A program made the translations under genes and the position numbers. Source: an uncultured Syntrophobacteraceae bacterium (GTDB taxonomy: Bacteria > Desulfobacterota > Binatia > UBA9968). From it: DNA of 64,000 bases. Numbering within the stretch: position 1 is the stretch's first letter; each line of letters opens with the position of its first letter. The notes under the pieces were generated by a model, which did not search any database, was not told the DNA's origin, and saw only the letters and a program-made list of their open reading frames with translations. Below, piece by piece: positions 2-18,896 of the stretch. The stretch spans positions 57,940 to 121,939 of the forward strand of contig CAYOJC010000001.1 in the NCBI GenBank assembly GCA_964404195.1, written 5' to 3'.

Positions 2-622
2 GCGAAGACGCGCGTGACCGAGGGTCCGCACGGCGAATCGCACGGGTTTTACGGCGATGAAAAAGAGGGGCTCGTCTTCAAAGTCAAATGTGTGACGCAC
101 AGAAAGAATCCGATCCATCAGGGACTGATCTGCAATTATATGGAAGACGGCGGCAAACGCATCACGCGCTCGGCGGTTTTGTGGGGCAAGTTAAAAAGTC
201 TCGGCACGCCCGGCGTGGTCGACGTCCGCTTTCCCGATCCGGGCTGCGGGCGCGAAATCTGCGTCGTCGCCGCCGATATCAAAGAACCGGGGCAGGTGAT
301 GCAGATCGTCGAGACGGTCTGGGGCGTCAACGCCATGGGGCCGAACTGGATCATCGTGGTCGACGCCGACGCCGATCTCGACGACTGGAACGATATTTGG
401 TGGCGCATTTATTCTAGAAGTGAGCCGCACCGCGACGTTTGGATCACGCCGCCGCGCCAGCACGGCGGGCACCAGCCGCTGGTGAAGCACGGCTTCACCT
501 CGCGCATCGCGATCGACGCGACCTCCAAGTTCAAGGGCGTGGAATTTCCCGAAGTGAACGACGTGAGCCGCGAGCTGACGCAGAAAGTCCTGAGACGGTG
601 GTCGGAGTTGGGCCTGGAGTAG
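2..622 (+). CDS. UbiD-family (prFMN-dependent) decarboxylase, C-terminal fragment; the 5' end lies upstream of the window
   Basis: The frame is open from the window edge. The translation aligns with the C-terminal region of the four complete UbiD paralogs in this window (…IVVDADADLDDWNDIWWRIYSRSEP… matches …IVVVDDDIDPTDLNEVIWAIGTRSNP…). Confidence 0.6.
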   Translation, partial: AKTRVTEGPHGESHGFYGDEKEGLVFKVKCVTHRKNPIHQGLICNYMEDGGKRITRSAVLWGKLKSLGTPGVVDVRFPDPGCGREICVVAADIKEPGQVMQIVETVWGVNAMGPNWIIVVDADADLDDWNDIWWRIYSRSEPHRDVWITPPRQHGGHQPLVKHGFTSRIAIDATSKFKGVEFPEVNDVSRELTQKVLRRWSELGLE

Positions 623-624
623 AT

Positions 625-775
625 CAGTGTGCGCGATGAATACTCACCACGAAGGACACGAAGTTGCGGAATCGACAAGAAAATATGATCTCACCACGAA
701 GCCCACGAAGGCCACGAAGGTTTGGGATATGAATAATTTTGAACTTCGTGTCCTTCGTGCCTTCGTGGTGAATCC
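625..775. repeat. REP/MITE-like element built from direct and inverted CACGAAGG/CCTTCGTG repeats
   Basis: caccacgaaggacacgaag … caccacgaagcccacgaaggccacgaagg … cttcgtgtccttcgtgccttcgtggtga. The same family occurs at 5479-5697 and 46630-46760. Confidence 0.5.
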
Positions 776-861
776 TACTTTTCTTATTTTGGTTGTGGCA
801 TTGCCGCGCTGGGCGCTTCGTGGTGAAAAGAACTTGAACCTGAAAAGTGGGAGACAGTCGA

Positions 862-3114
862 ATGGCGCATAAGGTTGTCGGGCGCTCGCTGCCCCGCGTC
901 GAGGGGGCGGCGAAGGTCAGCGGCGCGTTGAGTTACACGGCGGACATTCTTCGGCCCGGCTCTCTCTGGGGCAAAGTTCTGCGCAGCCCGCTGCCCCACG
1001 CGCGCATCCTTAATATAGATACCAGCCGGGCCATGAGCCTCCCCGGCGTGAAGGCGATCGTCACCGCCGCCGACATGAAAACGACGCTCGTCGGCGCGAC
1101 CTTGAGAGACATGCCGGTGATGGCGCGCGACCGCGTGCGCTTCGTCGGCGAGGAGATCGCCGCCGTCGCCGCCGTGGATGCCAACACGGCGGAAGAAGCG
1201 GTTGAATTGATCGACGTCGAATACGAAGATCTGCCGGCGGTTTTCGATCCGCTTGAGGCGATGAAGCCCGAGGCGCCCATCCTGCATCCGGATTACCCGA
1301 CTTATAAAGGACCGAAGACCATGGCGCTGGAACTCAAGAACGTCCAGACGCTCGTGCGCGGCCGGAAGGGCGAGATCGAAAAAGGCTTCGCCGAATCGGA
1401 TTTCATCTTCGAGAAAACTTATCGCACCCAGCTCGTGCACCAGGGCTACATCGAGCCTTACGCCTGCACGGTGGAAGTCGACGATCAGGGGCGCGTCGCC
1501 ATCTGGGTGGCGAACCAGGCGTTCTTCAAGCTCAGGCGCGTGCTGGCGGAATATTTGGAGCTTCCTCCGGAAGATATCACGATCTACCCAAGCAACATGG
1601 GCGGCTCGTTTGGCGCCAAAGATTTTCTGTTCCTGAATCCGGCGGCTTATTATCTCTCGAAAAAAACCGGCCGGCCCGTGCGCTTTGTGAAAAGCTACGG
1701 CGAAGAACTCGGAGCCACCACGCCGCGCCACTCCGCGGTGATCTCTCTCCGTGTCGGTGTAAAAAAGGACGGCCGCCTCTGGGCATGGGACGGAAAGACC
1801 TTCTACAACGGCGGCGCTTACGGCGCGTTCAAGCCCAACCCCAAAGGCTCGATGAGCGGCGCGTACATGGTCGCGGGCTCTTATAATATCCCCAACACGC
1901 GCCTCGAAGGGTATTGCGTTTACACCAATCAAGTCCCGTGCGGCTACTTCCGCGCGCCGGGGGAAGCCCAGACCCTGTTCGCGGTCGAAAGCCATATGGA
2001 CCTAATGGCCGAAGCGCTCGGCATGGATCCGATCGAGTTCCGCCGGCTGAACGCGCTGAAAGAAGGCGACACGCGCGCGACGGGCGAATCGCTGGAAGAT
2101 CCGCACTGCCTCGAAGTTCTCGATCGCGTGGCGAAAATTTCCGGATGGAAAAAGAAGCAAGCCAAAGCATCTGCCGAAAATAAATTAACCGGGCGCGGCG
2201 TGGCGCTCGGCGACCGCCACGTGGGCCACGGCGAGTCGAGCTTCGAATTGCTTCTCGAGCGCGGCGGAACGCTCCGGCTCTTGAGCGGCGTCGGTGATCA
2301 GGGGGTCGGCGCCTACACGATGCACCGCCAGGTCGCGGCCGAGCTGCTCGGAGTCAAGCCGGGCTTGATCGAGATCGAGGTCAGGGACACCTCCAACGCG
2401 CCATACGACCAGGGGATCAAGGGCGCCAGGGGGACGCACGTCGAGGGACAGGCGGTCGCGCGCGCGGCCGGCGCGTTGATCGACAATCTGCGTTCTCTCG
2501 CCGCGTCGCGATGGGGCGTGCCGGTCGAAAAGATTTCCTGGACCGATGGAGCCGCTCTCTTCAAAAACCACGGAAAAAGAAAAAAGCTGAGCTTGAAAGA
2601 ATTGGCGGGCCTTTCGGAAGCGCCGGTCAAGGGATTCGGCGAGTACACGGGACACAAGCCGCACGTCTATTCCTTTCAGGCGATCGTCGTCGACGCGGAG
2701 GTCGATCAGGAGACCGGCGCGGTCGAGTTGCAACACCTCTACTTCGTCTACGATGTCGGCACGATCATCAATCCGCTCAATCACCAGGGGCAGATCGAAG
2801 GCGGCATCGTCCAAGGCCTGGGCTACGCGCTGACCGAAGAGCTGAAAGTCGATGAAGGGCGCGTCACCACGGTGACGCTGGGCGATTACAAAATTCCCAA
2901 CATCGCCGACAATGTGCCGCTCACGACTTCGCTGGTTCAAGCGAAGGTCGGCCCCGGCCCGTTCGGCGCTAAGTCGGTGGCCGAGGCCGGAGTCAGCATC
3001 GTCGCGCCGGCGGTGGCGAACGCGGTCTACAACGCGACCGGCGTGCGGATCACTGAGCTGCCGGTCACCGCGGAAAAAATTATCGAGGGTCTCGCATGCC
3101 GTTCCAAAGTTTGA
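862..3114 (+). CDS. xanthine dehydrogenase/aldehyde oxidase-family molybdopterin-binding large subunit (copy 1)
   Basis: The protein is ~750 aa with an N-terminal a/b-hammerhead (RVEGAAKVSG..YTADI, LWGKVLRSPLPHARI) and the MoCo-domain motifs GGSFG, GYFRAPGE and GQGxxT. The ATG at 862 has a GGGAG RBS; the track start at 847 is a GTG. Confidence 0.85.
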   Translation: MAHKVVGRSLPRVEGAAKVSGALSYTADILRPGSLWGKVLRSPLPHARILNIDTSRAMSLPGVKAIVTAADMKTTLVGATLRDMPVMARDRVRFVGEEIAAVAAVDANTAEEAVELIDVEYEDLPAVFDPLEAMKPEAPILHPDYPTYKGPKTMALELKNVQTLVRGRKGEIEKGFAESDFIFEKTYRTQLVHQGYIEPYACTVEVDDQGRVAIWVANQAFFKLRRVLAEYLELPPEDITIYPSNMGGSFGAKDFLFLNPAAYYLSKKTGRPVRFVKSYGEELGATTPRHSAVISLRVGVKKDGRLWAWDGKTFYNGGAYGAFKPNPKGSMSGAYMVAGSYNIPNTRLEGYCVYTNQVPCGYFRAPGEAQTLFAVESHMDLMAEALGMDPIEFRRLNALKEGDTRATGESLEDPHCLEVLDRVAKISGWKKKQAKASAENKLTGRGVALGDRHVGHGESSFELLLERGGTLRLLSGVGDQGVGAYTMHRQVAAELLGVKPGLIEIEVRDTSNAPYDQGIKGARGTHVEGQAVARAAGALIDNLRSLAASRWGVPVEKISWTDGAALFKNHGKRKKLSLKELAGLSEAPVKGFGEYTGHKPHVYSFQAIVVDAEVDQETGAVELQHLYFVYDVGTIINPLNHQGQIEGGIVQGLGYALTEELKVDEGRVTTVTLGDYKIPNIADNVPLTTSLVQAKVGPGPFGAKSVAEAGVSIVAPAVANAVYNATGVRITELPVTAEKIIEGLACRSKV

Positions 3115-3176
3115 GAGAGTTCGTGCGCGAGTTTCACTTGTCACGACAATGGGACGCAACCCAGGGGGCTTTATGA
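3096..3176 (+). pseudogene. remnant of a UbiD 5' end (MPFQSLREFVREFHL…*) overlapping the XDH copy-1 stop
   Basis: gcatgccgttccaaagtttgagagagt (3092-3118) is 22/27 identical to the true UbiD start at 5749-5775 (gcatgccgttccaaagcctaagagatt; MPFQSLRDYL). Confidence 0.4.
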
Positions 3177-4732
3177 ACTGCTTGCGCATTGCGGCGTCTT
3201 TGTTGAGCGTATTTCTTGCCGTGGGTTTGTCCGAGGGAGCGGAGTCTCCGAGATACGGGGGGCGTTTGGTTTTTGGCCTGGCTAGAGACATCACCGGCCT
3301 GAATCCTTTCGTTCGCACCCGCTCAACCAACAAGTACGTACGGCAGATTGCCTACGAAGCGCTTTTCGACTACGACACAAAGGCTCAGCTCGTTCCGGCG
3401 CTTGCCGACTCCTGGACTGTTTCTCCCGATAGCAAGGTTTACACGATCAGGCTGCGGCGGGGGGTAAAATTTCACAACGGCGAGGAGCTGACCGCCGAAG
3501 ATGTGAAATGGAGCGCCGAATACGCCAAGGACCCCAAGAACGCGGCAACCGGAATCACCTTCTTGGAAAGAGTGCAGGCAGTGAGCGTCAAGGACAAGTA
3601 CACGGTGGAGTTCCTCCTAAAAGAGCCCCAGGCAATCTTTCTTAACCTGTTGGCATCCATGGAGGCCTCCTTCCCCGTTCTTCCCAAGGGGTCGGTGCCG
3701 GCTGCGCAGAGCAATTTGCCCAGTCCCCCTCCCGGGACCGGACCTTTTGAATTCAAAGAATACAAGCCGGCAAGAGAACTAGTCTTTGTGCGCAACAAAA
3801 ACTACTGGCAGAAAGGCCTTCCCTATCTCGACGAGCTGGTGCTCAAACCGGTGGAGGATGAGCAGGTTCGTTTTGCTTCGCTGCGCGCCGGGGACCTGGA
3901 TATGATCGAGCGAACCGCCTACGTATTCGTGAAGAAAATATTAAACAGAGAATACCCGGAGATCGGGGTTACAGAAGCCAAATATGCCGGCTTTCGGCGC
4001 CTGATATTCAACGTCGTGAATCCGCCCTTCAACGATCTCAAGCTGCGTCAGGCCGTGCTTTATGCTCTGGACAAAAAAGGCTACCTCGAAGGGGCCTTCT
4101 GGGGTCTTGGGGAGCCGGCGAACCAGGCGATTCCGACGGAGAGCCCCTGGTACGTCAAGCTGCCGGAGGCCAAGCGGGATTTGGCCAAGGTCAAGGCTCT
4201 TTTAAAGGAATCGAAAGCCGGCCCCGACTTTGAAGTGGAAATCCTGGCCCGGAGAGGGGAAGAGCCCGAGACCCAGATCCTTCGAGAGCAACTGACGACC
4301 GCCGGGATCAAAACCAGGATTGCGCTGCTGGAGAGCGCGGCGCGTGAGGCGCGGACCCGCGCAGGTGATTTTATGATAGTCCTGAGCGGGATGGATGTGC
4401 CCAACGATCCGGGGGACGATTATTCGGTGGAGTATGGCTGTAATCCCGAGGAAGTGTCGGCCAAACGACGAGGCCAGAACCAGGCCGGTTATTGCAATAA
4501 AGAATTCGACCGGCTGATGGCGGAGGCGTCGAAGATCCAGGATACGAAAAAGCGTTATGGGCTTTACGCCAATGCACTTGGGATTCTCAATCAAGAAATT
4601 CCGGCTATCTCCATGGCGTTCGTGCCGCGCTATTTCAGCTATCGACAGAAGGTGCGGGGCTTCAGGACCGACGGAGGCGATCGCTTCAACACGATCACTA
4701 CGGGACTTTCACGGGTTTGGATCGAACCTTAG
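3173..4732 (+). CDS. ABC transporter substrate-binding protein, family 5 (DppA/OppA-like), copy 1
   Basis: Signal peptide MNCLRIAASLLSVFLAVGLSEG, then RYGGRLVFGL…GLNPF…KFHNGEELTAEDV…PPGTGPF. An alternative ATG lies at 3149. It is paralogous to 20310, 25467(-) and 28635. Confidence 0.85.
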   Translation: MNCLRIAASLLSVFLAVGLSEGAESPRYGGRLVFGLARDITGLNPFVRTRSTNKYVRQIAYEALFDYDTKAQLVPALADSWTVSPDSKVYTIRLRRGVKFHNGEELTAEDVKWSAEYAKDPKNAATGITFLERVQAVSVKDKYTVEFLLKEPQAIFLNLLASMEASFPVLPKGSVPAAQSNLPSPPPGTGPFEFKEYKPARELVFVRNKNYWQKGLPYLDELVLKPVEDEQVRFASLRAGDLDMIERTAYVFVKKILNREYPEIGVTEAKYAGFRRLIFNVVNPPFNDLKLRQAVLYALDKKGYLEGAFWGLGEPANQAIPTESPWYVKLPEAKRDLAKVKALLKESKAGPDFEVEILARRGEEPETQILREQLTTAGIKTRIALLESAAREARTRAGDFMIVLSGMDVPNDPGDDYSVEYGCNPEEVSAKRRGQNQAGYCNKEFDRLMAEASKIQDTKKRYGLYANALGILNQEIPAISMAFVPRYFSYRQKVRGFRTDGGDRFNTITTGLSRVWIEP

Positions 4733-4759
4733 GTGGTCACTCGATAAAGGAGGATCAAG

Positions 4760-5479
4760 ATGCCAAAGCCGCCTGACGAATTCGTCGAAGAGCTTTTGCG
4801 CGGGAGGCTACCCCGTCGCGAGGAACGGCCGACTCGAGCGCTGATCGTTCAGGGAAAGCTCAGCAAAGAACAAGTGAAGCTATGGGTCAAGCAGCTTCAC
4901 TATTATCGCGTCAACGTGCCGCGCAAGGAGCTCTATATCCTGGCCAATTGCCCGATCAAAGAGATCCGGATGGAGCGATTGAAAAAGTATCTTGAAGAGG
5001 AGGACGATCGCGTGATGGGCGGGAAAGCCGGACCTCATGCCGAGCTGTGGGCCCAGTTGGGCGAAGGCCTGGGGATAAGCCGCGCGGAGATGGAAGACTT
5101 CGACGCCATGTGCCCGGAATACCGCCTCCTCGTCGACTCATGGGTCAACTACGCGCGCGATCACACTTGGCTGGGAGGCTCGGCCATGAGCTTCGATGAA
5201 GACGGCGGCACGGGGACCTCGGGCGAAGGAATGAACATGGCGCGGGCCTTGTCCAAATTCTACGGCGTTCCCGATTCGGGGTTGGCACATTTCACGCTCC
5301 ATTCCGAGCTTGACATCGAGCACGGCGCGTCGACCCACGACTTGATCCGAAAATACTCCCTTACGGACGAGCAACAGGAGGGCGTTCGCAACGCGGTCCG
5401 CTTCAAAAGAGCCTTCCATACGATGGAGGACCAGTGCATGCGGATCGCTTGCCGAATCGACCCGCAATTATATGCTTAG
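4760..5479 (+). CDS. PqqC-like (cofactor-independent oxygenase, haem-oxygenase-like fold) protein
   Basis: LSKEQVKLWVKQLHYYRVNVPRKELYILANCP and HAELWAQLGEGLGISRAEM align with the PqqC motifs TREQIQGWVANRFYYQ..IPLKDAAI.ANCP and IEAWLRLGEAVGLSRDDL. An AAAGGAGG RBS is present. No pqqA/B/D/E genes are nearby. Confidence 0.7.
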   Translation: MPKPPDEFVEELLRGRLPRREERPTRALIVQGKLSKEQVKLWVKQLHYYRVNVPRKELYILANCPIKEIRMERLKKYLEEEDDRVMGGKAGPHAELWAQLGEGLGISRAEMEDFDAMCPEYRLLVDSWVNYARDHTWLGGSAMSFDEDGGTGTSGEGMNMARALSKFYGVPDSGLAHFTLHSELDIEHGASTHDLIRKYSLTDEQQEGVRNAVRFKRAFHTMEDQCMRIACRIDPQLYA

Positions 5480-5697
5480 CCTGGATTATTCATCGACCGA
5501 GGAAAGATCGTGACACACTGTAGATGAGAAAAGCGTTCTTTGAGTCTTGGCGCGAGGACTTAAAAACTTCGTAACCTTCGTGCTCTTCGTGGTGATAAAC
5601 TTTTTGACCACGAAGGACACGAAGCACACGAAGGAAGAGGCGCAAAGAAAGAAGCCGTACCTCACGGAGAGGATGTATAACGGTGAATAATCCGGGC
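5479..5697. mobile_element. MITE-like element: 14-bp terminal inverted repeats (gcctggattattca / tgaataatccgggc) flanking a CACGAAGG hairpin
   Basis: The TIRs are 13/14 complementary. The core ccttcgtgctcttcgtggtg…accacgaaggacacgaagcacacgaagg is palindromic. The copy at 46630 starts with a similar TIR (ccggaatgattca). Confidence 0.45.
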
Positions 5698-5750: not shown

Positions 5751-7184
5751 ATGCCGTTCCAAAGCCTAAGAGATTACCTCAAGAAGGTCGAAGAGCACGG
5801 CGATCTTCTTAAGATCGACGGCGCGTCCCGCGAGGAGGAGATCGGCGCGCTGGCGGAAATCGTCGCGAGCACGGCCAAGCACCCGATGCTGCTCTTTGAC
5901 AACATCAAAGGATACCCCGCGGGATATCGCGTTTCGGCCAGCACGATGGGCGGCGTGCGCCGGATGGCTCTCGGCCTCGGCTTGGACCCGTCGCTCGCCA
6001 ATGTCGAGCTGGTAAAGGCATGGAAAGAGAAGCTCAAGACGTTCAAGCGGATCGAGCCGCGCGAAGTCGCCGACGGTCCGGTGCGGGAAAATGTTTTCTC
6101 CGGCGAAAAAATTGACTTGCTCAAATTCCCCGCGCCGAAGTGGCACGAACGCGACGGCGGCTACTACATCGGCACCGGCTGCTGCGTGATCACGCGCGAC
6201 CCCGACGATGGCTGGGTCAACATGGGCGTCTATCGCGTCGTGGTCCACGATAAGAAAACTCTCGGGATTTTTATCAACCACATCCAGCACGGCCGGCTCA
6301 TCGTCGAGAAGTACTGGTCGCAAGGAAAAAGTTGCCCGGTGATTATCTCTTTCGGACAAGACCCCGCGCTTTTTCTCGCCGCCGCGCAGCGCGAGCCGTG
6401 GGGCGTGGGCGAGCTCGACGTCGCGGGATGGCTTCGCGGCGAGCCGGTGGAAATTCTGAAAGGCGAGAGGACGGGTCTGCCGATTCCCGCGCACGCGGAG
6501 ATCGTCGTCGAAGGAGAGATCCCTCCGATCGAGAAAGAAGCGCGGCCCGAAGGGCCGTTCGGCGAGCGCACGGGTTACTACGCGACCGGGACGAGAAACG
6601 AGCCGGTCGTCCGCGTGTCGTCGCTGATGCACCGCAACGATCCGATCATCCAGGGTGATCCGCCGCTGAAGCCGGTGCCCGGCATGGACCACTTCGGCAT
6701 CCCGCTGCCCGCGGCGGGTGTGTGGTCGGCGTTGGAATCCGCCGGCATTCAAGACATCCGCGGGGTCTGGCTGCACGGCCCGTTCGCGACGGTGATCTCG
6801 CTCAAGCAGCGCTACGAAGGCCACGCGCGCCAGGCGGCGGCGATCGCGCTCGGCGCGCGCGCCACGGTGCACCTCGGAAGATTCGTCATTCTTGTCGACG
6901 ATGATATTGACCCGTCGGATCTCAGCGACGTCTTCTGGGCGGTCACGACGCGCTGCGATCCGGCGGAGCAAACGGAAGTCTTGAAAGGATTTCCGACGAG
7001 CGGCATCAATCCGCGCGTCGCGCCGGCGGACCGTGAAGAGGGACACTTTGTCTCTTCCAAGATGATCATCGACGCGTGCCGGCCGTACCGTTGGATCAAG
7101 GATTTTCCGGCGACGAACGTCATGAGCCCGGAGCTGAAAACGAAAGTAGCGGAGAAGTGGAAGCGATTGCTGGAGCGGCAGTGA
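5751..7184 (+). CDS. UbiD-family decarboxylase (copy 2)
   Basis: 477 aa. The N-terminus MPFQSLRDYL…LLFDNIKGYPAGYR matches the canonical UbiD PALLFENPKGY region, and the full-length architecture fits the family. Confidence 0.85.
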   Translation: MPFQSLRDYLKKVEEHGDLLKIDGASREEEIGALAEIVASTAKHPMLLFDNIKGYPAGYRVSASTMGGVRRMALGLGLDPSLANVELVKAWKEKLKTFKRIEPREVADGPVRENVFSGEKIDLLKFPAPKWHERDGGYYIGTGCCVITRDPDDGWVNMGVYRVVVHDKKTLGIFINHIQHGRLIVEKYWSQGKSCPVIISFGQDPALFLAAAQREPWGVGELDVAGWLRGEPVEILKGERTGLPIPAHAEIVVEGEIPPIEKEARPEGPFGERTGYYATGTRNEPVVRVSSLMHRNDPIIQGDPPLKPVPGMDHFGIPLPAAGVWSALESAGIQDIRGVWLHGPFATVISLKQRYEGHARQAAAIALGARATVHLGRFVILVDDDIDPSDLSDVFWAVTTRCDPAEQTEVLKGFPTSGINPRVAPADREEGHFVSSKMIIDACRPYRWIKDFPATNVMSPELKTKVAEKWKRLLERQ

Positions 7185-7278
7185 GTTTTCCATGCCGGCG
7201 ACCGTGCCGCGCGAGGCATCGCGTCCGGCTTCAAGGACGAATTATACAAACAAGCCCCGTGAGAAGAATGCAAGGCCA

Positions 7279-9531
7279 ATGGATTTTCTGACGATCGGCC
7301 AGCCGGTCCCGCGCGTCGACGGCCCCGCCAAGGTGAGCGGCGCGTGCGTTTACACGGCCGACGTTCCCGGCGCGGGAACGCTGTGGGGAAAATTTTATCG
7401 CAGCCCGCTGCCGCACGCGCGCATCCTGAACGTCGATACGGGAAAAGCCAAGAAAGTTCCCGGCGTCAAAGCCGTGATCTCCGCCGGCGACGTGTCGCCG
7501 CGGCGCGAGGGCTACACGCTGCAGGACAAGCCGATCTTCGCGCGGAAAAAAGTTTTATATTGCGGGGAAAAGGTCGCGGGAGTCGCGGCCGTCGATAAGG
7601 ACGCGGCGGAAGAGGCCGTCGCGTTGATCGAAGTCGAGTACGAAGAGCTGCCGGCGGTGTTCGATCCGCTCGAGGCGATGAAACCGGAAGCGCCCCTGCT
7701 TCACCCCGACTATGCCTCCTACCTTGGGCCGCCGAGCATGGCGCCGGATCTGAAAAACGTCCAGAGCGTGATGCGCGCCGCCAAAGGCGACACCGCCAGA
7801 GGATTCGCGGAATCGGACGAGATTTTTGAAAACTCTTTTCGCACGCAGATGGTCCACCAGGGCTTCATCGAGCCGCGCGCGTGCCGGGTCGAGATCGACC
7901 GCGACGGACGGATCCAGGTCTGGTTTTGCCATCAATCGAGCTTCAAGGTCCGCCGCTGGATGGCGACGCACCTCGGAATTGCCGAGGAGAAAATCGTCGT
8001 CCATCCGGTCGCGCTCGGCGGCTCGTTCGGCGGCAAAGAAGGCTATGAGGAGGCGCTCTGCACCTATTACCTGGCCGCGGCCGCCGGCAAGCCGGTGAAA
8101 GTGGTGGATAGCTACGCCGAGGAGCTGCTCGACGGCGAGCCGCGCCACGCGGCGGTAATCCGGCTTGGCACCGGCGTGAAGCGGGACGGCCGGCTGTGGG
8201 CGTGGGAGGGAAAGATATTTTACAACGGCGGCGCCTACGCCGCGCGAAAGCCCAGCCCGAAGGCCAACATGAGCGGCACCTTCATGCTGGCGGGCTCGTA
8301 CAACATCCTGCATACGCTCATGGAAGGCTACGCGGTTTACACCAATCAAATACCGTGCGGCTACTTTCGCGCGCCGGGAGAGCCGCAGACGCTCTTCGCC
8401 GTCGAATCACACGTCGACATGATCGCCGAAACCTTGGGCATCGATCCGCTCGAGTTTCGCTTGAAGAACGTGTTGCGCGCGGGAGATACGAGGGCGACGG
8501 GGGAGCCGCTCGCCGATCCGCGCGGCGCGGAAGCGCTCAGCGAGCTGGGAAAAATTTCGGCCTGGAAAAAAACTTCTCTAAAACCGACGCGAGGCCGGAA
8601 GCTCCGCGGGCGCGGGCTCGCCCTCGGCGACCGCCACGTGGGCCACGGCGAGTCCAGCGCCGAGATTTATCTCGAGCGCGACGGCGCGGTGCGCCTCGTC
8701 ACTTCCGTGAGAGATCAGGGCGTCGGCGCTTACACGATGCATCGCCAGGTCGCGGCGGAAACGTTGGGCATCGAGCCGGAGCGCGTTCGGGTCGAGATCA
8801 AAGGGACGGCCGACGGTCCTTACGACGAGGGCGTCCGGGGCGCCCGCGGCGCGCACGTCGAAGGCCGTGCGGTGTTGCGCGCGGCCGAAAACTTAATCGC
8901 ATGTCTCCGAAAACAGGCCGCGGCGTACTGGAGAGTCGACGCCGGCAAGGTCGAGTGGCAAGCGGGCAAGGCGTGGTTGGCGAACGGCCGAAAATCCAAA
9001 AACCTCGGACTTAACGATCTGGCCCGCATGATCGAAGCGCCGCTCAAAGGCTACGGCCATTACAAGGCCGAGAAAAAACCTTCGGTCTATTCCTTTCAGG
9101 CGATCGCCGCAGACGTCGAAGTCGACGCCGAAACCGGCGCAGCGCGCGTCGCGAAGCTCTATTTTACTTACGACGTGACCAAAGTCATCAATCCGGTCAT
9201 TCACCAGGGACAGATCGACGGCGCGATCGTCCAGGGATTGGGCTATTCGTTGATGGAGGAAATGGCCGTGGACGAAGGGCGGGTGCTCACGCTGAGCCTC
9301 GGCGATTACAAGATACCCAACATCAAAGACGTTCCGCCCCTCGTCACTTCTCTGGTGCAAGCCAAAAAAGGGCCCGGACCTTTCGGCGTGAAGGCCGTGG
9401 CGGAAGCGGGCATCAGCATCGTCGCTCCCGCGATCGCCAACGCCGTTTACAACGCGACCGGCGTGAGAATCACGGAGCTGCCGGTCACGGCGGAAAAAAT
9501 TCTCGCCGGTCTGGCGCGTCTTTCTAAATGA
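7279..9531 (+). CDS. xanthine dehydrogenase-family molybdopterin-binding large subunit (copy 2)
   Basis: It is paralogous to 862..3114 (PRVDGPAKVSGACVYTADV…GYFRAPGEPQTLFAVESH). The ATG at 7279 is in frame; the track ORF was extended upstream. Confidence 0.85.
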   Translation: MDFLTIGQPVPRVDGPAKVSGACVYTADVPGAGTLWGKFYRSPLPHARILNVDTGKAKKVPGVKAVISAGDVSPRREGYTLQDKPIFARKKVLYCGEKVAGVAAVDKDAAEEAVALIEVEYEELPAVFDPLEAMKPEAPLLHPDYASYLGPPSMAPDLKNVQSVMRAAKGDTARGFAESDEIFENSFRTQMVHQGFIEPRACRVEIDRDGRIQVWFCHQSSFKVRRWMATHLGIAEEKIVVHPVALGGSFGGKEGYEEALCTYYLAAAAGKPVKVVDSYAEELLDGEPRHAAVIRLGTGVKRDGRLWAWEGKIFYNGGAYAARKPSPKANMSGTFMLAGSYNILHTLMEGYAVYTNQIPCGYFRAPGEPQTLFAVESHVDMIAETLGIDPLEFRLKNVLRAGDTRATGEPLADPRGAEALSELGKISAWKKTSLKPTRGRKLRGRGLALGDRHVGHGESSAEIYLERDGAVRLVTSVRDQGVGAYTMHRQVAAETLGIEPERVRVEIKGTADGPYDEGVRGARGAHVEGRAVLRAAENLIACLRKQAAAYWRVDAGKVEWQAGKAWLANGRKSKNLGLNDLARMIEAPLKGYGHYKAEKKPSVYSFQAIAADVEVDAETGAARVAKLYFTYDVTKVINPVIHQGQIDGAIVQGLGYSLMEEMAVDEGRVLTLSLGDYKIPNIKDVPPLVTSLVQAKKGPGPFGVKAVAEAGISIVAPAIANAVYNATGVRITELPVTAEKILAGLARLSK

Positions 9532-11595: not shown

Positions 11596-13038
11596 ATGAA
11601 CACGGATCTGCGAGACTGGATCGTTGCGGTACAAGCCACCGGTGAGATCAAGACGCTCAGCGGCGCAGACTGGAACAGAGAGATCGGCACGCTGGTTGAG
11701 CTCAACGCCAAGGCGCGTGGGCCGGCCCTGCTCTTCGACGAGATCAGGGGCTACCCGGCGGGCTTCAGGCTGCTGGCCGGGGCGATGTCGAGCGCCAGAA
11801 GACTCGCCCTGACGCTTGGGCTTCCGCCCGATCTCGATGGGCTCGAACTCATCCGTTGCATGAAAGACAGCATGCGCGGCTGGAACGACCGCCTGGGTGA
11901 TTTTCCGCCGGTAGAGGTTCAAAGCGGCGTCGTCTTTGAAAACGTGGATGCCGAGGAAAAGACCAATCTGTTAAAGTTTCCATCCCCGCTTTGGCACGAA
12001 GAGGACGGCGGGCGCTATATCGGCACAGGCTCGGTTGCCATCATGCGAGACCCGGAAAGCGGCTGGATCAATCTAGGCACCTACAGGATCATGGTTCACG
12101 ATGAAAAGAGCGCCGGCATCTTCATGGCACCCGGCCACCATGGCGGAATCATCATGAAGAAATACTGGAAAGCGGGCAAACCCTGCCCGATTGCCGTCTC
12201 CGCCGGCCATCACCCGCTGATTTTTTTTGCCGGATCTTCTTCGCTTCCCGCGGAGACTTCGGAATACAACTACGTCGGTTCCATTCTGAAGGAGTCGGTG
12301 CCGGTCGTGATGGGACCCGTCACCGGGCTTCCGATTCCGGCCTACAGCGAAGTCGCATTCGAAGGCCACCTTTTTCCCGACGAAATGAAAACCGAGGGAA
12401 TATTCGGCGAATGGCCCGGCTACTACGTGAGCGAGGCCAAGCCGGAGCCGGTCATCCGGGTCAAGGCCGTGTATCACCGAAACGATCCGATTCTGCTCGG
12501 CGCCTGGCCCGGAAAACCACCCCACGACAGCACTTACCGAAACTCGATCATAAAGTCTGCAAGCCTTTGGGAGCTTCTCGAACGAGCGCGCATTCATGGC
12601 GTCACCGGCGTTTATCGCCCGGAGGCCGGGAGCGCAAATCTTTTGACGATCGTCAGGATCAAGCAGCTCTACGACGGCCACGCCCGCCAGGTGGGAACCG
12701 TAGCTTCGCAGCTTCTCCATCCGTCACATTCCACCCGCTATGTCATCGTCGTCGATGACGGCCTCGACATCACCAATCTTGAGGAGGTGATGTGGGCGGT
12801 CTGCACGCGCAGCGACCCGGCGCGCTCGATCGCCATCATTGACCAGACCCACGCCAACGCTCTCGACCCGATGGTTCGCTCACGCTATGACAAAGCGGCC
12901 GGCAACACGGCTTCCTGCGCGATCATCGACGCCTGCTGGCCCTACCGCGCGCTTGCCAAAGTCCCCAAGGTCGCAGAGTCGAGCGAGGAGTTTAAAAAAC
13001 AGGTCAAAGCCAAGTGGAGAGGAAAACTGTCTCTGTAA
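11596..13038 (+). CDS. UbiD-family decarboxylase (copy 3)
   Basis: 480 aa. GPALLFDEIRGYPAGFR and a UbiD-like C-terminus (VIVVDDGLDITNLEEVMWAV). Confidence 0.85.
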   Translation: MNTDLRDWIVAVQATGEIKTLSGADWNREIGTLVELNAKARGPALLFDEIRGYPAGFRLLAGAMSSARRLALTLGLPPDLDGLELIRCMKDSMRGWNDRLGDFPPVEVQSGVVFENVDAEEKTNLLKFPSPLWHEEDGGRYIGTGSVAIMRDPESGWINLGTYRIMVHDEKSAGIFMAPGHHGGIIMKKYWKAGKPCPIAVSAGHHPLIFFAGSSSLPAETSEYNYVGSILKESVPVVMGPVTGLPIPAYSEVAFEGHLFPDEMKTEGIFGEWPGYYVSEAKPEPVIRVKAVYHRNDPILLGAWPGKPPHDSTYRNSIIKSASLWELLERARIHGVTGVYRPEAGSANLLTIVRIKQLYDGHARQVGTVASQLLHPSHSTRYVIVVDDGLDITNLEEVMWAVCTRSDPARSIAIIDQTHANALDPMVRSRYDKAAGNTASCAIIDACWPYRALAKVPKVAESSEEFKKQVKAKWRGKLSL

Positions 13039-13052
13039 GCCGTTCTTTTTTA

Positions 13053-14246
13053 TCAGGTATGTTCTTTCTGGAGGAACCAATCGGTGGGGATCTCGTGGCC
13101 CAGCTCCAGGCGACGCGCGCCGGCGAGAATCCGCGCGCCGGTCGCCGCATGCTGGATGCCGAGGCCGATGTTGTTACAGTGAAAGGTGATCTCATCGTCC
13201 TTTCTCCTACCCTTGATTTTTCCCGTCAGCAGCTCGCCGAGCTCGTGCATCGAGGCCCAGTCGAGCTGCCGCGATTTTTTGTTGATGTTGCTCCCGACCG
13301 TATCCATCTTCTTCCCCATGACGAAGTCGCGCACCAGATCGCTCCCGCCGGAGAAGGGGCGCGCGTTGACGACGATGAGATCGCTGATCTTAAAGCTCGC
13401 CGCGTCCGCCTCGACGATGTTGATGCTGCCGAAATGCGCGCCTTCCTCGATCCAGCGCGCGCGAAAGACCGGCGTCAGAGAGGTCGTGGCGCTCAACACA
13501 ATTTCCGAACCGGGGCAAACGTCTTGCGGCTTATCGACTGGAACGATCTCGATTCCCGTGGCCCGCTCCATGCTGGCGGCGAAGGCTTTGCGGTGGCCGG
13601 CGTTGGGGCTGAACACTTTGACGCGCTTAAGCTTTCTCACCAGAGCGGCCGCCATCACCTGGCCCTCGGCCTGGAAACCAGTGCCAAAAAGGCCCAGCGT
13701 CTGAGCCTCCTTTCGCGCCAGGTGCTTGATCCCGACGGCGGAAGTCGCCGCCACGCGGTTTCTCTGCAGCGGTCCGAGCGGCAGAATGGCGAGCAGCTCG
13801 CCGCTTACGATATCGAAGAGAAGCATCATGCCCGTGTAGCGCCAGCCCGATCCAAGTGGCAGCTTTACGCTCCGCTTGACGCCGTTGACGACGGGGTTGG
13901 TGTCCGTCGTCGAGTCGATTTTCAGCGCCATGATGCCGCACTTCGGATAGCCGCCCGGAATGGTCTTGAGCCGATAGTTCAGCTCCTCGGTTCGCTTGGC
14001 GGCGCGAACCCACAGAGGGGACTGATGCGGATCGGCGTCGACCGGGAGATCGCGCAGCAGTTTCTTTGCCTTTCGGCTGACCTCAGCGGAAGCGCCGTAT
14101 TTGAGAAGCGGAATGCCGGTCTCGGTGCGCGGCGCGTTGATCGCCGCTCCTTTGCCCAACTCCGTGAAGGCCTCTTCCATCGCCTCGATGTAGCCCTTGA
14201 GATCCAGGGCCCGCAGGACCTCTTCCGTATTCAAGACCAGCGTCAT
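13053..14246 (-). CDS. ornithine cyclodeaminase/mu-crystallin family protein
   Basis: Rossmann motif LGLFGTGFQAEGQV and OCD-family architecture (~397 aa). It is the only minus-strand gene in the first 25 kb. The overlapping + ORF 13014..14390 is an R-rich artefact. Confidence 0.75.
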   Translation of the reverse strand: MTLVLNTEEVLRALDLKGYIEAMEEAFTELGKGAAINAPRTETGIPLLKYGASAEVSRKAKKLLRDLPVDADPHQSPLWVRAAKRTEELNYRLKTIPGGYPKCGIMALKIDSTTDTNPVVNGVKRSVKLPLGSGWRYTGMMLLFDIVSGELLAILPLGPLQRNRVAATSAVGIKHLARKEAQTLGLFGTGFQAEGQVMAAALVRKLKRVKVFSPNAGHRKAFAASMERATGIEIVPVDKPQDVCPGSEIVLSATTSLTPVFRARWIEEGAHFGSINIVEADAASFKISDLIVVNARPFSGGSDLVRDFVMGKKMDTVGSNINKKSRQLDWASMHELGELLTGKIKGRRKDDEITFHCNNIGLGIQHAATGARILAGARRLELGHEIPTDWFLQKEHT

Positions 14247-14352
14247 TTTGCCCCCGCCGGACGATTTTCCCGGTTTAAGATTTTTTCGTTTTCGCCGACC
14301 GGCTTTTTTATAGGCCAGCCTGGTCGGAAAGACAACCGATCTATTGACCGAT

Positions 14353-14428: not shown

Positions 14429-14435
14429 TCGAGCG

Positions 14436-15431
14436 ATGATTAAAATAACATTGTTTTTGCTCTACATGATTTTTCTACTCGCGCGCGCGGATATCTCCCT
14501 CGCGCAGAAGCGGCCGCTGCGGGCTTCTTATCCGGCGCCGACCACCGTGTATCTCCCTCTTTGGGTCGCCAAGGACGCAGGTTTTTTCACCAAGCAGGGC
14601 GTCGATGTCGAGCTGGTTCACGTCGGTTCTTCTCCGATCGCCATGGCCGCGTTTTTGGCCGGGGAGATCGACATCCTGGGCGGCGGCGGCTCGAGCGGCC
14701 CCAATGCCTATCTCAGGGGACAGCGCGACCTGGCGTTTTTCGTTTCGATGAACAACAAATTTGTCTTTTCCATCTATGGCCCACCGACGATGGCGAATCT
14801 GTCCGCCGTGCGCGGCAAGCGCATCGGCGTGACGCGCTTCGGCGGGACCATGGACTTCGCCACGCGCCATTTCCTGCGGCTCAGCGGGCTCGATCCCGCG
14901 CGCGACGTGGCGATGGTCCAGGTCGGCAGGGTGCAGGATATTCTGTCGGCGATGGCGGCGGGCTCGGTGGACGTCGGCACGATGGCGTTTCCCTACGATA
15001 TTAAAGCGAGGGAGAGCGGCTATCGCGAGCTCGCCGATCTCGCGCAGAGCGGAGCGCGTTACGCTTCGTCGTCTTTTTTGGGGAAGCGGCAATTTCTCGC
15101 GCAGCAGAAGCCCCGCATCGAGTCGTTCGTGCGTGGACTGATCGAGGCGATTCACTTTATCCGGACGCGGCGCGACGAAGGCATAAAAATTCTCGCGCGC
15201 TATACGCGCATGTCGGATATGAACATCCTGCAGCAGACCTACGATTTCCACAGCAGGGTGATCTGGCCCCGGGTGCCGGAGCTGCAGCCCGAGGATCTGA
15301 AGCTCGTCCTGGAAGAACTGGCGGACGCCAACCCCAAGGCGCGCGAGATCGATCCCGCGGAGCTGATTTACGGCGCCGCAATAAAAGACGTGGTCGCGAG
15401 CGGATTCGTCGAGAAGCTTTATGCGCGGTGA
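14436..15431 (+). CDS. NMT1/THI5-like periplasmic substrate-binding protein, copy 2
   Basis: Paralog of 10586..11572 (LRASYPAPTTVYLPLWVAKDAGFF…GGGGSSGPNAY). Confidence 0.75.
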   Translation: MIKITLFLLYMIFLLARADISLAQKRPLRASYPAPTTVYLPLWVAKDAGFFTKQGVDVELVHVGSSPIAMAAFLAGEIDILGGGGSSGPNAYLRGQRDLAFFVSMNNKFVFSIYGPPTMANLSAVRGKRIGVTRFGGTMDFATRHFLRLSGLDPARDVAMVQVGRVQDILSAMAAGSVDVGTMAFPYDIKARESGYRELADLAQSGARYASSSFLGKRQFLAQQKPRIESFVRGLIEAIHFIRTRRDEGIKILARYTRMSDMNILQQTYDFHSRVIWPRVPELQPEDLKLVLEELADANPKAREIDPAELIYGAAIKDVVASGFVEKLYAR

Positions 15432-16430
15432 GTTAAAGAAGGGCCCGCGAATCGCCTGGCTGCTTCTCTTGATCTGGATCGGGCCGATTCCAGCGAACGG
15501 CGCCGTTGCGCCGGCGCCGCTGCGGGTTTCGTACCCGGCGCCGACGGCTTCTCAGCTTCCTCTCTGGGTGGCCAAAGAATGGAAATTTTTCGACAAACAC
15601 GGCGTAGGCGTCGAGCTCGTCTACGTCGGCTCGTCGTCCATCGCCATCGCCGCGCTCTTAGCGGGAATCTGGACGTCGTCGCCGGCGGCGGGGTCGGCGG
15701 CATCGCCTCTTACCTGCAGGGCTATCGCGACCTGGCGCTCTTCGCCAGCTTGAACAACCGCTTGAATTTTTTCGTCTACGCGCATCCCTCGATCACAGAT
15801 CCGTCCGGACTTCGCGGCAAGCGGTTCGGCGTCAGCCGCTTCGGCGGCGTCGGCGATTTCGCGGCGCGTTATTTCTTGAAGCGCTCGGGTCTCGATCCGC
15901 GTAAGGACCTGGCCATGATCCAGGTGGGCAGCCAGTTGGAATTGACTCCGGCGCTGGCGCGCGGCGCCGTCGACGCGGGCACCGTATCGGTGCCGCAGAA
16001 CTTTGCAGCCAAGAAGCTGGGCTATCGAGAGCTGGCCGACTTGACGCAGAGCGGCGCGCGATACGCCTCGAACGCTTTTTTGGCCAAGAAGCAATTCCTC
16101 ATCGACAACAGAGCGCGCATGGAAACTTTCCTGCGGGCCGTGATCGAATCGATCCATTTCATTAAAACGCGCCGGCCGGAGGCTTTGAGCGTCCTCGCCC
16201 GTTATACGAGAACGAACGACACGGAAGCTTTGGGTTTGATTTACGACGAATACGTCCACAAGGTCTGGCCGCAGATCCCTGGAATCGAGCCCGAAGATTT
16301 GAAGGCGGTCTTTGAACAGCTGGGGGAAACCAATCCTAAAGCGCTGGAAGTCAATCCCGCCGAGCTGGTGTACGCGCCGCTCATGGATAATGTGGTCAAG
16401 TCGGGTTTTGTGAAGGAACTTTACCGCTGA
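15421..16430 (+). pseudogene. NMT1/THI5-like substrate-binding protein, copy 3, disrupted by a -1 frameshift near 15666
   Basis: Frame 1 (15421..15753) carries the N-terminus and frame 3 (15579..16430) the rest. Restoring one A in gggaa(a)tctg gives LLAGNLDVVAGGGVGGIASYLQGYRDL, which is collinear with the paralogs. This may be a true pseudogene or a homopolymer sequencing error. Confidence 0.6.
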
Positions 16431-17434
16431 TGGGAAGAACGCGAGTCATCGCCGCGATCATTTTTGCTTGGATCGCGATTGCCGCGGGCGGCGCGAGCGG
16501 CGCCGCTGCGCCGGCTTCTCTGCGCATCGCCTACCCGGCGCCGACCGCTTCTTTTCTTCCGCTCTGGACGGCCCAGGACGCAGGGTTTTTCAAGAAGCAC
16601 GATCTCGCGGTGGAAGTGATCCGGGTCGGATCCTCGACCCGCGGCATGGCCGCTTTGCTCGCGGGCCAGATCGACGTGCTCGCGGGCGGCGGCACCGGCG
16701 GCCTGGTGGCGCAGTTGCAAGGCTTCACCGATCTCGCGGTCTTCGGCACCAACGTGCATACTTGGGTGTTTTCGGTCTACACGGCGCCGTCGATCAAAGA
16801 CGTCGCGCAGCTCCGCGGCAAGAAGTTGGGCGTGACCCGGTTCGGCGGGACTATGGATTTCGCGGCGCGCCACTTTCTCAAAGGACAGGGGTTAGAGCCG
16901 GGGAAGGACGTCGTTCTGGTTCAGCTCGGCAGCGCGGCGGACATCGTCACCGCTTTGGCCAACGGAGTCGTCGATTCCGGGATGATGTCGGTCCCTTATG
17001 TGTTCGTCGCAAAAAGGTTGGGACTCCGGGAGCTGACCGATCTCTCCCAAACCGGGATACGCTACGCGCAGGCGGCGCTGGTTGCGAAGAGAAGTTTTCT
17101 GCGCGACAAACGGGAAGTTGTGACTCGGTTTATCAAGTCGCAGATCGAGGCGATTCATTTTTTAAAGACGCGTCCGGCCGACGGCATGCGCGTCCTGGGC
17201 CGCTATACGCGAACCGATGACGAGGAAATTTTGAAGCAGGCGTACCATTACCACGTGGACCGGCTGCTCTCGCGCGTTCCCGACATTCATCCGGACGATG
17301 TCAGATTATTGTTGGAGGAAGCCGCGCTCACCAATCTCAAAGCCAAGGGCGCGAATCCGCAGGATTTCATCGACGAGGGACCGGTGCGCGAAGTCGTGCG
17401 CTCCGGCTTCGTCGAGCAGCTTTACAAGAAATAA
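16430..17434 (+). CDS. NMT1/THI5-like periplasmic substrate-binding protein, copy 4
   Basis: LRIAYPAPTASFLPLWTAQDAGFF. The start overlaps the copy-3 stop (TGATG). Confidence 0.75.
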   Translation: MGRTRVIAAIIFAWIAIAAGGASGAAAPASLRIAYPAPTASFLPLWTAQDAGFFKKHDLAVEVIRVGSSTRGMAALLAGQIDVLAGGGTGGLVAQLQGFTDLAVFGTNVHTWVFSVYTAPSIKDVAQLRGKKLGVTRFGGTMDFAARHFLKGQGLEPGKDVVLVQLGSAADIVTALANGVVDSGMMSVPYVFVAKRLGLRELTDLSQTGIRYAQAALVAKRSFLRDKREVVTRFIKSQIEAIHFLKTRPADGMRVLGRYTRTDDEEILKQAYHYHVDRLLSRVPDIHPDDVRLLLEEAALTNLKAKGANPQDFIDEGPVREVVRSGFVEQLYKK

Positions 17435-17465
17435 CTTTGCGCGGGTAGTTTCCGAGGAGGAGACC

Positions 17466-18896
17466 ATGGATGACTTGAGAGCTTGGTTGAAAGAGATAGA
17501 CGCGCTGGGTCAACTGAAGCAGGTGAACGGCGCGTCAACGAACCTGGAGATCGGCGTGATCACGGAGATCAACGGACAGCGGAGGGGCCCGGCGCTTTTG
17601 TTCGACAACATACCGGGCTTTCAAAAAGGTTTCAGGATTTTGTCCGGTTCGAGCCTCAACGCCAAGAGGCTCGCCTTGACGCTCGGCTTCCGCGACATCG
17701 ACACCGACCGGCAGCTCATCTCGCGCCTCGAAGGAAAGATGAGCGAGTTCGAGCGCAAGGCGCGGGATTATCCCACGAAGGACGTTTCGAGCGGCTCCGT
17801 CTTGCAGAATCGACTTTCCGAGCAGCAAGTCGATCTGCTGAAATTTCCCGCGCCCAAGTGGCACGAGCACGACGGCGGCAACTATCTCGGCACGGGCTGC
17901 ATCGTCGTCACCAAGGATCCCGACAGCGGCAGGATCAACTTCGGGTCGTACCGGCTGATGGTGCAGGATAAAAAAACCGTCACGCTGCACATTTCTCCGG
18001 CGCATCACGGCGCGATCAACGTGAGAAAATATCACGAGCGCGGGGAAGCCGCGCCGGTCGCCGTTTCGTTAGGCCACCATCCGCTCTATCTCATCATCTC
18101 GGGCATGGGGATTTCCTACGGCATTTCGGAATACGAATATTTCGGCGCGGTGACGGGGGAATCCGCTGCGGTGATTCGCGGTGAGGCGACGGGATTGCCG
18201 ATTCCGGCGGCGAGCGAGATCGCCTTCGAAGGTTTCTGTCCTCCCGGCGAGTTGCGCGAAGAGGGGCCTTTCGGCGAATATACCGGCTACTATGCATCGG
18301 GCCGGGGCAAAGAGCCGATCATCGACGTCAAGGCGGTCTACCACAGGGACGATCCGATTATCCTCGGCGTGCCGCCGGGACGTCCGCCGCACGACTACTC
18401 TTACGCCAGCGTGCTGATGAAATCCGTCAACGTCAAAGAGTCGCTCGTCAAAGACGGCATCCCGGACGTCAAAGGCGTGTGGTTTCACGAGGCGGCCGGT
18501 GTGAATTTTTTCGGCGTCGTGTCCATACGCCAGAGATATCCCGGTCACGCGCGCCAGGCGGGCCACGTCGCGGCGCAGTGCCAGGCGGCGGGAAATCACC
18601 TGGGCCGCTACATCGTCGTCGTGGACGACGATATCGATCCGACGGATCTGAATGAAGTCATCTGGGCGATCGGAACCAGGTCCAATCCGGAAAAGGATAT
18701 CGACTTGATCCGCAACACCTACACGAGCCCGCTCGATCCGATCTATTCCAGGGAGAAAAAAGGCGGCTTCGGCACTCGCGCGGTCATCGATGCCTGCAAG
18801 CCCTACGATTGGATCAACGAATTTCCCAAGGTCGCGTCGACGAGCGCGGAGGAAAGAAAAAAAGTGCTGACGAAGTGGAAACAGCTCTTCGAATAG
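17466..18896 (+). CDS. UbiD-family decarboxylase (copy 4)
   Basis: MDDLRAW…GPALLFDNIPGFQKGFR. GAGGAGGA RBS. The track ORF 17298.. is an upstream extension. Confidence 0.85.
   Translation: MDDLRAWLKEIDALGQLKQVNGASTNLEIGVITEINGQRRGPALLFDNIPGFQKGFRILSGSSLNAKRLALTLGFRDIDTDRQLISRLEGKMSEFERKARDYPTKDVSSGSVLQNRLSEQQVDLLKFPAPKWHEHDGGNYLGTGCIVVTKDPDSGRINFGSYRLMVQDKKTVTLHISPAHHGAINVRKYHERGEAAPVAVSLGHHPLYLIISGMGISYGISEYEYFGAVTGESAAVIRGEATGLPIPAASEIAFEGFCPPGELREEGPFGEYTGYYASGRGKEPIIDVKAVYHRDDPIILGVPPGRPPHDYSYASVLMKSVNVKESLVKDGIPDVKGVWFHEAAGVNFFGVVSIRQRYPGHARQAGHVAAQCQAAGNHLGRYIVVVDDDIDPTDLNEVIWAIGTRSNPEKDIDLIRNTYTSPLDPIYSREKKGGFGTRAVIDACKPYDWINEFPKVASTSAEERKKVLTKWKQLFE

Follow-up and report, generated by a model that had tools for sequence, protein, structure and literature searches.

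Four UbiD decarboxylases, three molybdenum hydroxylase subunits and no UbiX alongside: a probable catabolic island of Candidatus Binatia

Decarboxylases of the UbiD family and molybdenum (Mo) hydroxylases of the xanthine dehydrogenase (XDH) family are known to be encoded side by side. In Cupriavidus basilensis, one pathway, that of the HMF/furfural cluster (hmfABCDE and hmfFGH), contains both HmfF, a UbiD decarboxylase, and HmfABC, a hydroxylase of the XDH family. This cluster specifies all three subunits of the hydroxylase, together with a CoA ligase and, adjacent to HmfF, the UbiX protein HmfG that makes prenylated flavin mononucleotide (prFMN), the UbiD cofactor. The gene for PhdA, the phenazine-1-carboxylic acid decarboxylase of Mycolicibacterium fortuitum, has a UbiX gene, phdB, next to it as well. 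Lumazine/pterin degradation cluster I of Cupriavidus sp. LA-1 also combines an N-heterocycle Mo-dehydrogenase with UbiD and UbiX (PMC12391406). Here we describe a related arrangement in a stretch of 64,000 nucleotides—‘the window’ in what follows—from an uncultured Syntrophobacteraceae bacterium of the GTDB lineage Binatia (assembly GCA_964404195.1, contig CAYOJC010000001.1, positions 57,940 to 121,939). Its first half carries four UbiD genes and three genes for XDH-family large subunits, but none for UbiX.

In view of the lumazine and hmf precedents, the pairing of UbiD with a Mo-hydroxylase is not new in kind. The scale and the company differ, however. The LA-1 cluster has a single UbiD and its own UbiX (LA1_0144), whereas the island in our window has four UbiDs, three orphan molybdenum cofactor (MoCo) subunits and no UbiX. 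And of what accompanies HmfF—a complete three-subunit hydroxylase, an adjacent UbiX, a CoA ligase—we found nothing in the island. Among proteins of solved structure, the closest to one of the four copies, UbiD_B, is PhdA (PDB 7PDA; PMC10850782), with which it aligns end to end (4e-128, 45% identity); UbiD_C and UbiD_D share 38% of their residues with PhdA and belong to the same clade, and the acid–base motif E-G-P-F-G-E is common to them. An identity of 45% is too low for the same substrate to be assumed, and the neighbors differ: here they are Mo-hydroxylase and bicupin genes, with no UbiX. The fourth copy, UbiD_A, has as its closest solved relatives E. coli UbiD (1e-57) and HmfF, the 2,5-furandicarboxylate decarboxylase (6H6X; 5e-54), at only 32% identity. 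E. coli resembles the island in one respect, namely that its ubiD has no ubiX beside it.

We interpret bases 1 to ~34,000 of the window as an island of Candidatus Binatia, rich in paralogs, for the uptake and catabolism of aromatic or N-heteroaromatic carboxylic acids, dependent on UbiX and on redox helpers supplied in trans, and we put the probability of this at roughly 0.7. Periplasmic binding proteins, five of them NMT1/SsuA-like and four of family 5, would bring (hetero)aromatic carboxylates in, with the help of an ATP-binding cassette (ABC) importer. The four prFMN-dependent UbiDs would take off ring carboxyl groups, the three Mo-hydroxylase subunits would put on ring hydroxyls, and four bicupins that resemble gentisate dioxygenase would open the rings. 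The simplest order of events would be uptake, UbiD decarboxylation, hydroxylation by the Mo enzyme or by a monooxygenase, a second decarboxylation and, finally, oxygenolytic ring cleavage. A single UbiX encoded elsewhere would make prFMN for all of the paralogs, and the Fe–S/FAD electron-transfer subunits of the hydroxylases would come from elsewhere, too. Because there are two or three decarboxylases in each core unit, polycarboxylated substrates are suggested; pyridine dicarboxylates, degraded by a picolinate-like route, are one example, and a speculative one.

The gene map was drawn from stop-to-stop open reading frames (ORFs) with high third-position GC content, in a window of ~60% G+C, and from Pfam scans of ~54 of these ORFs. 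For comparison, related loci were collected by searching with UbiD_A, which produced 12 loci from GTDB genomes and 24 from metagenomes; five more came by way of XDH1 homologs. The genomes are labeled Candidatus Binatia in ten cases, Candidatus Acidiferrales in one and Deltaproteobacteria in one, and across their 12 loci UbiD_A is conserved at 81–98% amino-acid identity. None of the genome or metagenome loci is identical to the window. The set takes in 10 kb upstream of the UbiD_A orthologs. ORFs in these loci were labeled by their best match to window proteins, and precomputed Pfam contexts were also used. Individual loci are cited below by number (L003 and so on).

The initial annotation credited the window with five UbiD paralogs. 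Paralogs they are, and strong ones, but there are four: tblastn with each copy and a UbiD hidden Markov model (HMM) run on six-frame ORFs both find loci at 2–622, 5751–7184, 11596–13038 and 17298/17466–18896, and no others. The order of genes given in that annotation names only UbiD0, 2, 3 and 4, and the figure of five was apparently a slip of numbering. At the place where ‘UbiD1’ would be expected lies ORF 2912–4732, the gene for an SBP_bac_5 solute-binding protein, SBP5a, which was possibly counted as the fifth. All four UbiD genes are on the + strand. UbiD_A (2–622), of the E. coli UbiD/HmfF-like branch, is the 3' part of a gene, 206 codons that run in from the start of the window, with Pfam domains UbiD and UbiD_C and the motif E-G-P-H-G-E; its full-length ortholog in locus L003 (9176–10618), at 98% identity, contains the complete set of three UbiD domains. 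UbiD_B (5751–7184), the PhdA-like decarboxylase, has all three also, and exactly the same protein is present on two 2-kb Logan contigs. UbiD_C (11596–13038), of the PhdA-related clade, is 41–46% identical to UbiD_B and UbiD_D and has an 84% ortholog in L003. UbiD_D (17466–18896), with orthologs in L003 and L006, begins with an ATG at 17466 preceded by a GAGGAGG ribosome-binding site (RBS), which makes the mechanical ORF start at 17298 unlikely.

Membership in the UbiD family is clear. The architecture UbiD_N/UbiD/UbiD_C exceeds the Pfam gathering scores, with the core domain matched at 1e-59 to 1e-64, and all four proteins score 268–305 against TIGR00148, for which the cut-off is 245 (UbiD_A by way of its L003 ortholog). 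Beyond family membership the assignments stop: the specific NCBIfam models—UbiD proper, VdcC, phenylphosphate carboxylase alpha and beta, the menaquinone decarboxylase SCO4490 and BagN/FevL—are reached by none of the copies, with scores such as 302 against a cut-off of 469, 278 against 650 and 209 against 788. The last of these pairs is that of UbiD_A with the UbiD-proper model, and it rules out a housekeeping UbiD of the quinone pathway. No ORFs for small, Cys-rich UbiD partners of the VdcD/LpdD kind were found in the first 30 kb.

Are these genes all alive? The four copies were aligned with Fdc1 of Aspergillus niger, PhdA and E. coli UbiD; for the N-terminal residues of UbiD_A, the L003 ortholog was used. 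The numbering of the Fdc1 sequence in this alignment reproduces N168, R173, H191, E233, E277 and E282, of which N168, H191 and E233 are the ligands of Mn2+ and the prFMN phosphate. The N168 and E233 positions are kept in all four proteins and H191 in UbiD_B, C and D; at this last position UbiD_A has a shifted HR pattern like that of E. coli UbiD. R173, E277 and E282, the residues of the R-Xn-E-X4-(E/D) network, are likewise present in all four, the R of UbiD_A coming from the ortholog, and this motif is needed for catalysis (PMC5818171). Thus the loss of cofactor-binding residues that would mark non-catalytic paralogs was not seen.

Nor do the copies look young. UbiD_B, C and D are 41–46% identical to one another, and UbiD_A is 25–34% identical to the rest (27–31% by tblastn, by which all pairs span 27–46%). 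In a neighbor-joining tree they fall into four orthogroups, each with orthologs from other Binatia metagenome-assembled genomes (MAGs); UbiD_A sits beside E. coli UbiD, and PhdA falls within the clade of the other three, nearest UbiD_B. That several genes of one family lie close together, and that one of the NMT1-like copies appears truncated, might lead one to suppose that the UbiDs arose by recent tandem duplication or are non-catalytic paralogs in decay. We give this next to no chance. Identities of only 25–46% refute it, as do orthologs of each copy, at 71–98% identity, in other MAGs, and ORFs that are uninterrupted, with catalytic and metal-binding residues in place. From their conserved residues, their low mutual similarity and their separate Binatia orthologs, the four copies are old, distinct subfamilies, apparently functional, and neither recent duplicates nor dead copies.

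UbiX is another matter. The window was said at the outset to lack it, and it does. Pfam finds no Flavoprotein/UbiX domain (PF02441) in the scanned ORFs of the window, and tblastn with the true E. coli UbiX (NC_000913) finds no match there. An HMM built from four sequences—an approximate E. coli UbiX, which matches all UbiX/Pad1 entries in the PDB, and three PDB sequences—and run with filters off (--max) on six-frame ORFs of the window yields no hit at E<=1, although the same model recovers E. coli ubiX, as a positive control, at 1e-96. When 43 related loci were searched together with the window (555 kb in all, with 66 UbiD ORF hits), still no UbiX appeared. A ubiX just beyond the edge of the window, which would have accounted for the gap, is thus absent on the upstream side in relatives, within the 10 kb that precede the UbiD_A orthologs.

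How much should be made of this? The premise of the initial annotation, that UbiX is usually encoded nearby, is fair: UbiD genes are ‘frequently’ in an operon with UbiX, according to Leys and co-workers (PMC10865409). The significance that it implied for the missing gene is not supported. UbiX is not always part of the UbiD operon, and in E. coli K-12, ubiX (2,428,057–2,428,626) and ubiD (4,024,988–4,026,481) are 1.6 Mb apart, so the lack of a UbiX in cis is unremarkable. One UbiX can serve several UbiDs, as it does in P. aeruginosa. By analogy with E. coli, UbiX is most likely encoded elsewhere in this genome, and since none of the cofactor-binding residues has been lost, much the most probable arrangement is supply in trans. 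Neither ubiX nor ubiD nor the genes of quinone biosynthesis are mentioned in the Binatota papers and their supplements.

The more radical view is that the lineage has no UbiX at all, and that it salvages prFMN, makes it with a prenyltransferase not homologous to UbiX, or has UbiDs that work without it. That not one UbiX accompanies so many UbiD ORFs is what this view would predict, as the usual operon partner of UbiD is UbiX (PMC10865409). However, the search covered ~0.5 Mb of scattered loci, every one of them centered on the same cluster or on XDH paralogs, and the core operon has no conserved gene that might be a candidate for the alternative. Retention of every prFMN/Mn2+ ligand argues for the normal cofactor, and the unlinked ubiX of E. 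coli is well known. We regard a UbiX-less lineage as very unlikely.

The Mo-hydroxylases are represented by three large subunits. XDH1 (862–3114, +), a molybdopterin-binding large subunit of the XDH family, comprises the Pfam domains Ald_Xan_dh_C, MoCoBD_1 and MoCoBD_2; a look-up of the exact protein, from the 862 start, returned no record. XDH2 (7279–9531, +, with an alternative start at 7192) is 62% identical to it, and XDH3 (23141–25390, +) is 53–55% identical to both; these two are likewise recognized by Pfam. In XDH1 the Glu of GAKSVAE aligns with the catalytic Glu763 of CO dehydrogenase (CODH), and XDH2 and XDH3 show this motif as well; with its three domains and this Glu, XDH1 has what defines a Mo-hydroxylase large subunit. 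It is not itself a CODH, the active-site loop being GYFRAPG instead of the CODH loop. The best match in the PDB is HcrA (1rm6, 3e-96).

The order in which UbiD and XDH genes alternate (UbiD–XDH–…–UbiD–XDH–…–UbiD–…–UbiD–…–XDH) was given correctly in the initial annotation, which saw in it a functional pairing of hydroxylation with (de)carboxylation. The related loci support this. XDH1 follows UbiD_A in 27 of the 27 that extend past UbiD_A, and in ~18 of them UbiD_B follows XDH1, whether directly, after an insert of SBP5a and a TenA-like gene, or after a second XDH. The next gene after UbiD_B is usually a bicupin. The conserved core unit is therefore UbiD_A–XDH1–UbiD_B–bicupin; XDH2, UbiD_C, UbiD_D and XDH3 are variable add-ons. 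This conservation, and the tight packing of the genes, support the view that decarboxylation and Mo-hydroxylation are functionally linked. In relatives, a GntR regulator, a protein like 4,5-dihydroxyphthalate decarboxylase, a luciferase-like monooxygenase and another bicupin precede the core unit, a composition compatible with a polycarboxylated ring being decarboxylated and hydroxylated step by step. The most compact version, in L041 on a contig of 3.36 Mb, reads GntR, a 334-aa protein, a luciferase-like monooxygenase, a bicupin, UbiD_A, XDH, UbiD_B and a bicupin, and then unrelated genes. The 334-aa protein lies upstream in three loci (L041:5238-6242, L003:3696-4697 and L039:1150-2163). It has no Pfam match, but it resembles 4,5-dihydroxyphthalate decarboxylase (PDB 9jp7) at 5e-16, and on this similarity it is predicted to add a third kind of decarboxylase to the core operon.

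Two sets of relatives deserve separate mention. In L035, a more distant relative (a contig of ERZ1370068, 62% identity), the UbiD and XDH genes at 9–17 kb are split into many short, frame-shifted ORFs, which probably reflects error-prone long-read assembly rather than pseudogenization. In L044 and L045, XDH paralogs lie among Amidohydro_2 decarboxylases, split thiamine pyrophosphate enzymes and additional binding proteins; L045 also has Rieske oxygenases and TctABC transporters. These contexts suggest a broad, little-described repertoire of aromatic-acid catabolism in the phylum; the main Binatota genome paper makes no mention of aromatics.

What the Mo-hydroxylases lack is partners. Neither a [2Fe–2S] small subunit nor an FAD medium subunit, adjacent or fused, is encoded in the window or in its syntenic relatives, L039 and L041 among them: the motifs CGxCTPG, CRCTGY and Cx4CGAC do not occur there, and Fer2_2 is missing from the precomputed Pfam contexts of the relatives. 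At two other places in Binatia genomes, XDH paralogs are orphans likewise. At one place a trace survives: beside an unrelated XDH paralog, at L044:8951-9504, is a frameshifted, coxM/coxS-like remnant in which CGFCTPG is kept and NLCRCTGY has become NLRRCTGY. Recovery of so decayed a gene validates the motif search. Orphan XDH large subunits are, in our opinion, odder than the UbiX gap.

With no partner genes in sight, there is a small probability that the MoCo subunits use other partners instead. The stand-alone subunit and the UbiDs that flank it might form a new complex, in which hydroxylation and decarboxylation are coupled without the canonical Fe–S/FAD subunits. The order UbiD_A–XDH1–UbiD_B is invariant in Binatia, the gap shrinking to 3 bp in L039, and the L044 remnant is the sole sign of an Fe–S/FAD partner. 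But a shared pathway explains the synteny equally well, and no XDH-family enzyme is known to turn over without Fe–S centers. We attach little likelihood to the idea. Taken more broadly, as a Binatia operon with a partnerless MoCo subunit between two UbiDs, in which prFMN comes by a new route or MoCo subunit and UbiD form a new complex, it is still a long shot, and one that would hold if complete genomes were found to lack UbiX and/or subunits of the CoxS/CoxM type. Were that the case, hydroxylation would be coupled with decarboxylation of polycarboxylated aromatics, or prFMN would be made in a new way.

A further possibility is an anaerobic pathway of the phenol type, with the UbiDs as alpha- and beta-like subunits of a phenylphosphate carboxylase and the XDHs as dehydroxylases akin to 4-hydroxybenzoyl-CoA reductase. 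The top NCBIfam match of UbiD_B and UbiD_C is, indeed, the beta subunit of phenylphosphate carboxylase, that of all three XDHs is HcrA, and the best structural match of XDH1 is HcrA, too. These scores are far below the cut-offs, however: 283–302 against 469 for the UbiDs and, for the HcrA equivalog (TIGR03194), 462–495 against 995, the highest being that of XDH1. The window has no phenylphosphate synthase, no gamma or delta subunits and no HcrB or HcrC, and its AMP-binding domains occur only in the nonribosomal peptide synthetase (NRPS) genes downstream of the island. Moreover, four genes for O2-dependent bicupin dioxygenases, and the luciferase-like monooxygenase of the relatives, point to aerobic chemistry. 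A phenol-type pathway is, we think, highly improbable.

The interpretation that we prefer, a catabolic island with helpers in trans, has its own difficulties. UbiDs and XDHs alike score below the NCBIfam cut-offs for equivalogs. XDH1, XDH2 and XDH3 have neither a fused Fe–S domain nor an adjacent partner gene, so that their redox function has to be assumed to reside elsewhere, and UbiX failed to appear in the related loci as well as in the window. These points all weigh against it.

The remainder of the island is devoted, for the most part, to uptake and ring cleavage. Up to 18.9 kb the genes run, on the + strand unless stated, in the order UbiD_A, XDH1, SBP_bac_5, Haem_oxygenase_2/TenA-like, UbiD_B, XDH2, bicupin, NMT1-like, UbiD_C, ornithine cyclodeaminase/mu-crystallin (– strand), three NMT1-like and UbiD_D; beyond come bicupins, SBP_bac_5 genes, XDH3 and an Opp/Dpp-type ABC importer, and the island ends near 34 kb. 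Packing is tight and mostly on one strand, with overlaps of 4 bp at XDH2/Cup1 and Cup1/NMT1a. SBP5a (3173–4732, +; Pfam SBP_bac_5, 2e-84), a family-5 periplasmic solute-binding protein, has an N-terminus like a signal peptide when read from the 3173 start. It is followed by a Haem_oxygenase_2/TenA/PqqC-like gene (4760–5479, +; Pfam), and the two form a joint insert that separates XDH1 from UbiD_B in some relatives but not in others. The bicupin Cup1 (9528–10589, +; Pfam Cupin_2 twice), a putative ring-cleaving dioxygenase whose start overlaps the XDH2 stop, is the one kept after UbiD_B in relatives. Further bicupins are Cup2 (19094–20194, +), Cup3 (21899–23026, +) and Cup4 (27155–28258, –), recognized by Pfam; as a group they weakly resemble 5-aminosalicylate and gentisate 1,2-dioxygenases, below the NCBIfam cut-offs.

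NMT1a (10586–11572, +; Pfam NMT1/NMT1_2), an SsuA/NMT1-like periplasmic binding protein, has a signal peptide and an RBS. After UbiD_C comes the gene for the ornithine cyclodeaminase/mu-crystallin family protein (13053–14246, –; Pfam), and then, in tandem, three more of the NMT1/SsuA-like kind (14436–15431, 15579–16430 and 16430–17434, +), identified by Pfam and by their N-termini. The middle gene of this trio specifies 283 aa rather than ~330, with an Arg-rich N-terminus, no signal peptide and no in-frame start upstream, and it may be truncated or decaying. SBP_bac_5 genes lie at 20310–21860 (+) and 25467–27011 (–), the latter, like Cup4, placed by Pfam and start site. Downstream, the island probably ends with a further SBP_bac_5 gene and an Opp/Dpp-type ABC importer of two permeases and two ATPases (28635–34049, +; Pfam). 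From their signal peptides, the NMT1-like and family-5 proteins are periplasmic binding proteins.

Other features of the window call for brief comment. Palindromic intergenic elements resembling repetitive extragenic palindromes (REPs) consist of CACGAAG heptamers, spaced at 9 bp, that face CTTCGTG, for example CTTCGTGTCCTTCGTGCCTTCGTGGTGA. They cluster at 648–822, 5576–5633 and 46645–46740, and two of these three clusters adjoin UbiD genes; the heptamer is matched 32 times in the window, on both strands, against ~9 expected. Where the island and its ABC transporter have ended, an IS91-family transposase follows closely, beside a tyrosine recombinase (36212–38257, –; Y2_Tnp and Zn_Tnp_IS91). 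The two may mark a mobile or rearranged boundary; the composition of the cluster varies strongly from one related MAG to the next. Farther on, at 50327–63999 (+), a large NRPS locus unrelated to the UbiD island encodes a 1711-aa protein of adenylation (A), thiolation (T) and condensation (C) domains in the order A-T-C-A-T, two stand-alone A-T proteins and a C-C-A-T protein cut by the end of the window. Just upstream of the locus, on the opposite strand, are a pyridoxal phosphate enzyme and two small proteins without significant Pfam matches, one of which, of 224 aa, is weakly ferritin-like.

UbiD enzymes are sought after as catalysts of reversible (de)carboxylation, and substrates are known for few of their subfamilies. 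The want of a UbiX gene nearby is, by itself, of little significance. What the island contributes is four uncharacterized UbiD subfamilies from an uncultured phylum, in a conserved setting of Mo-hydroxylases and ring-cleavage enzymes that narrows the search for their substrates to (hetero)aromatic, and probably polycarboxylated, acids.

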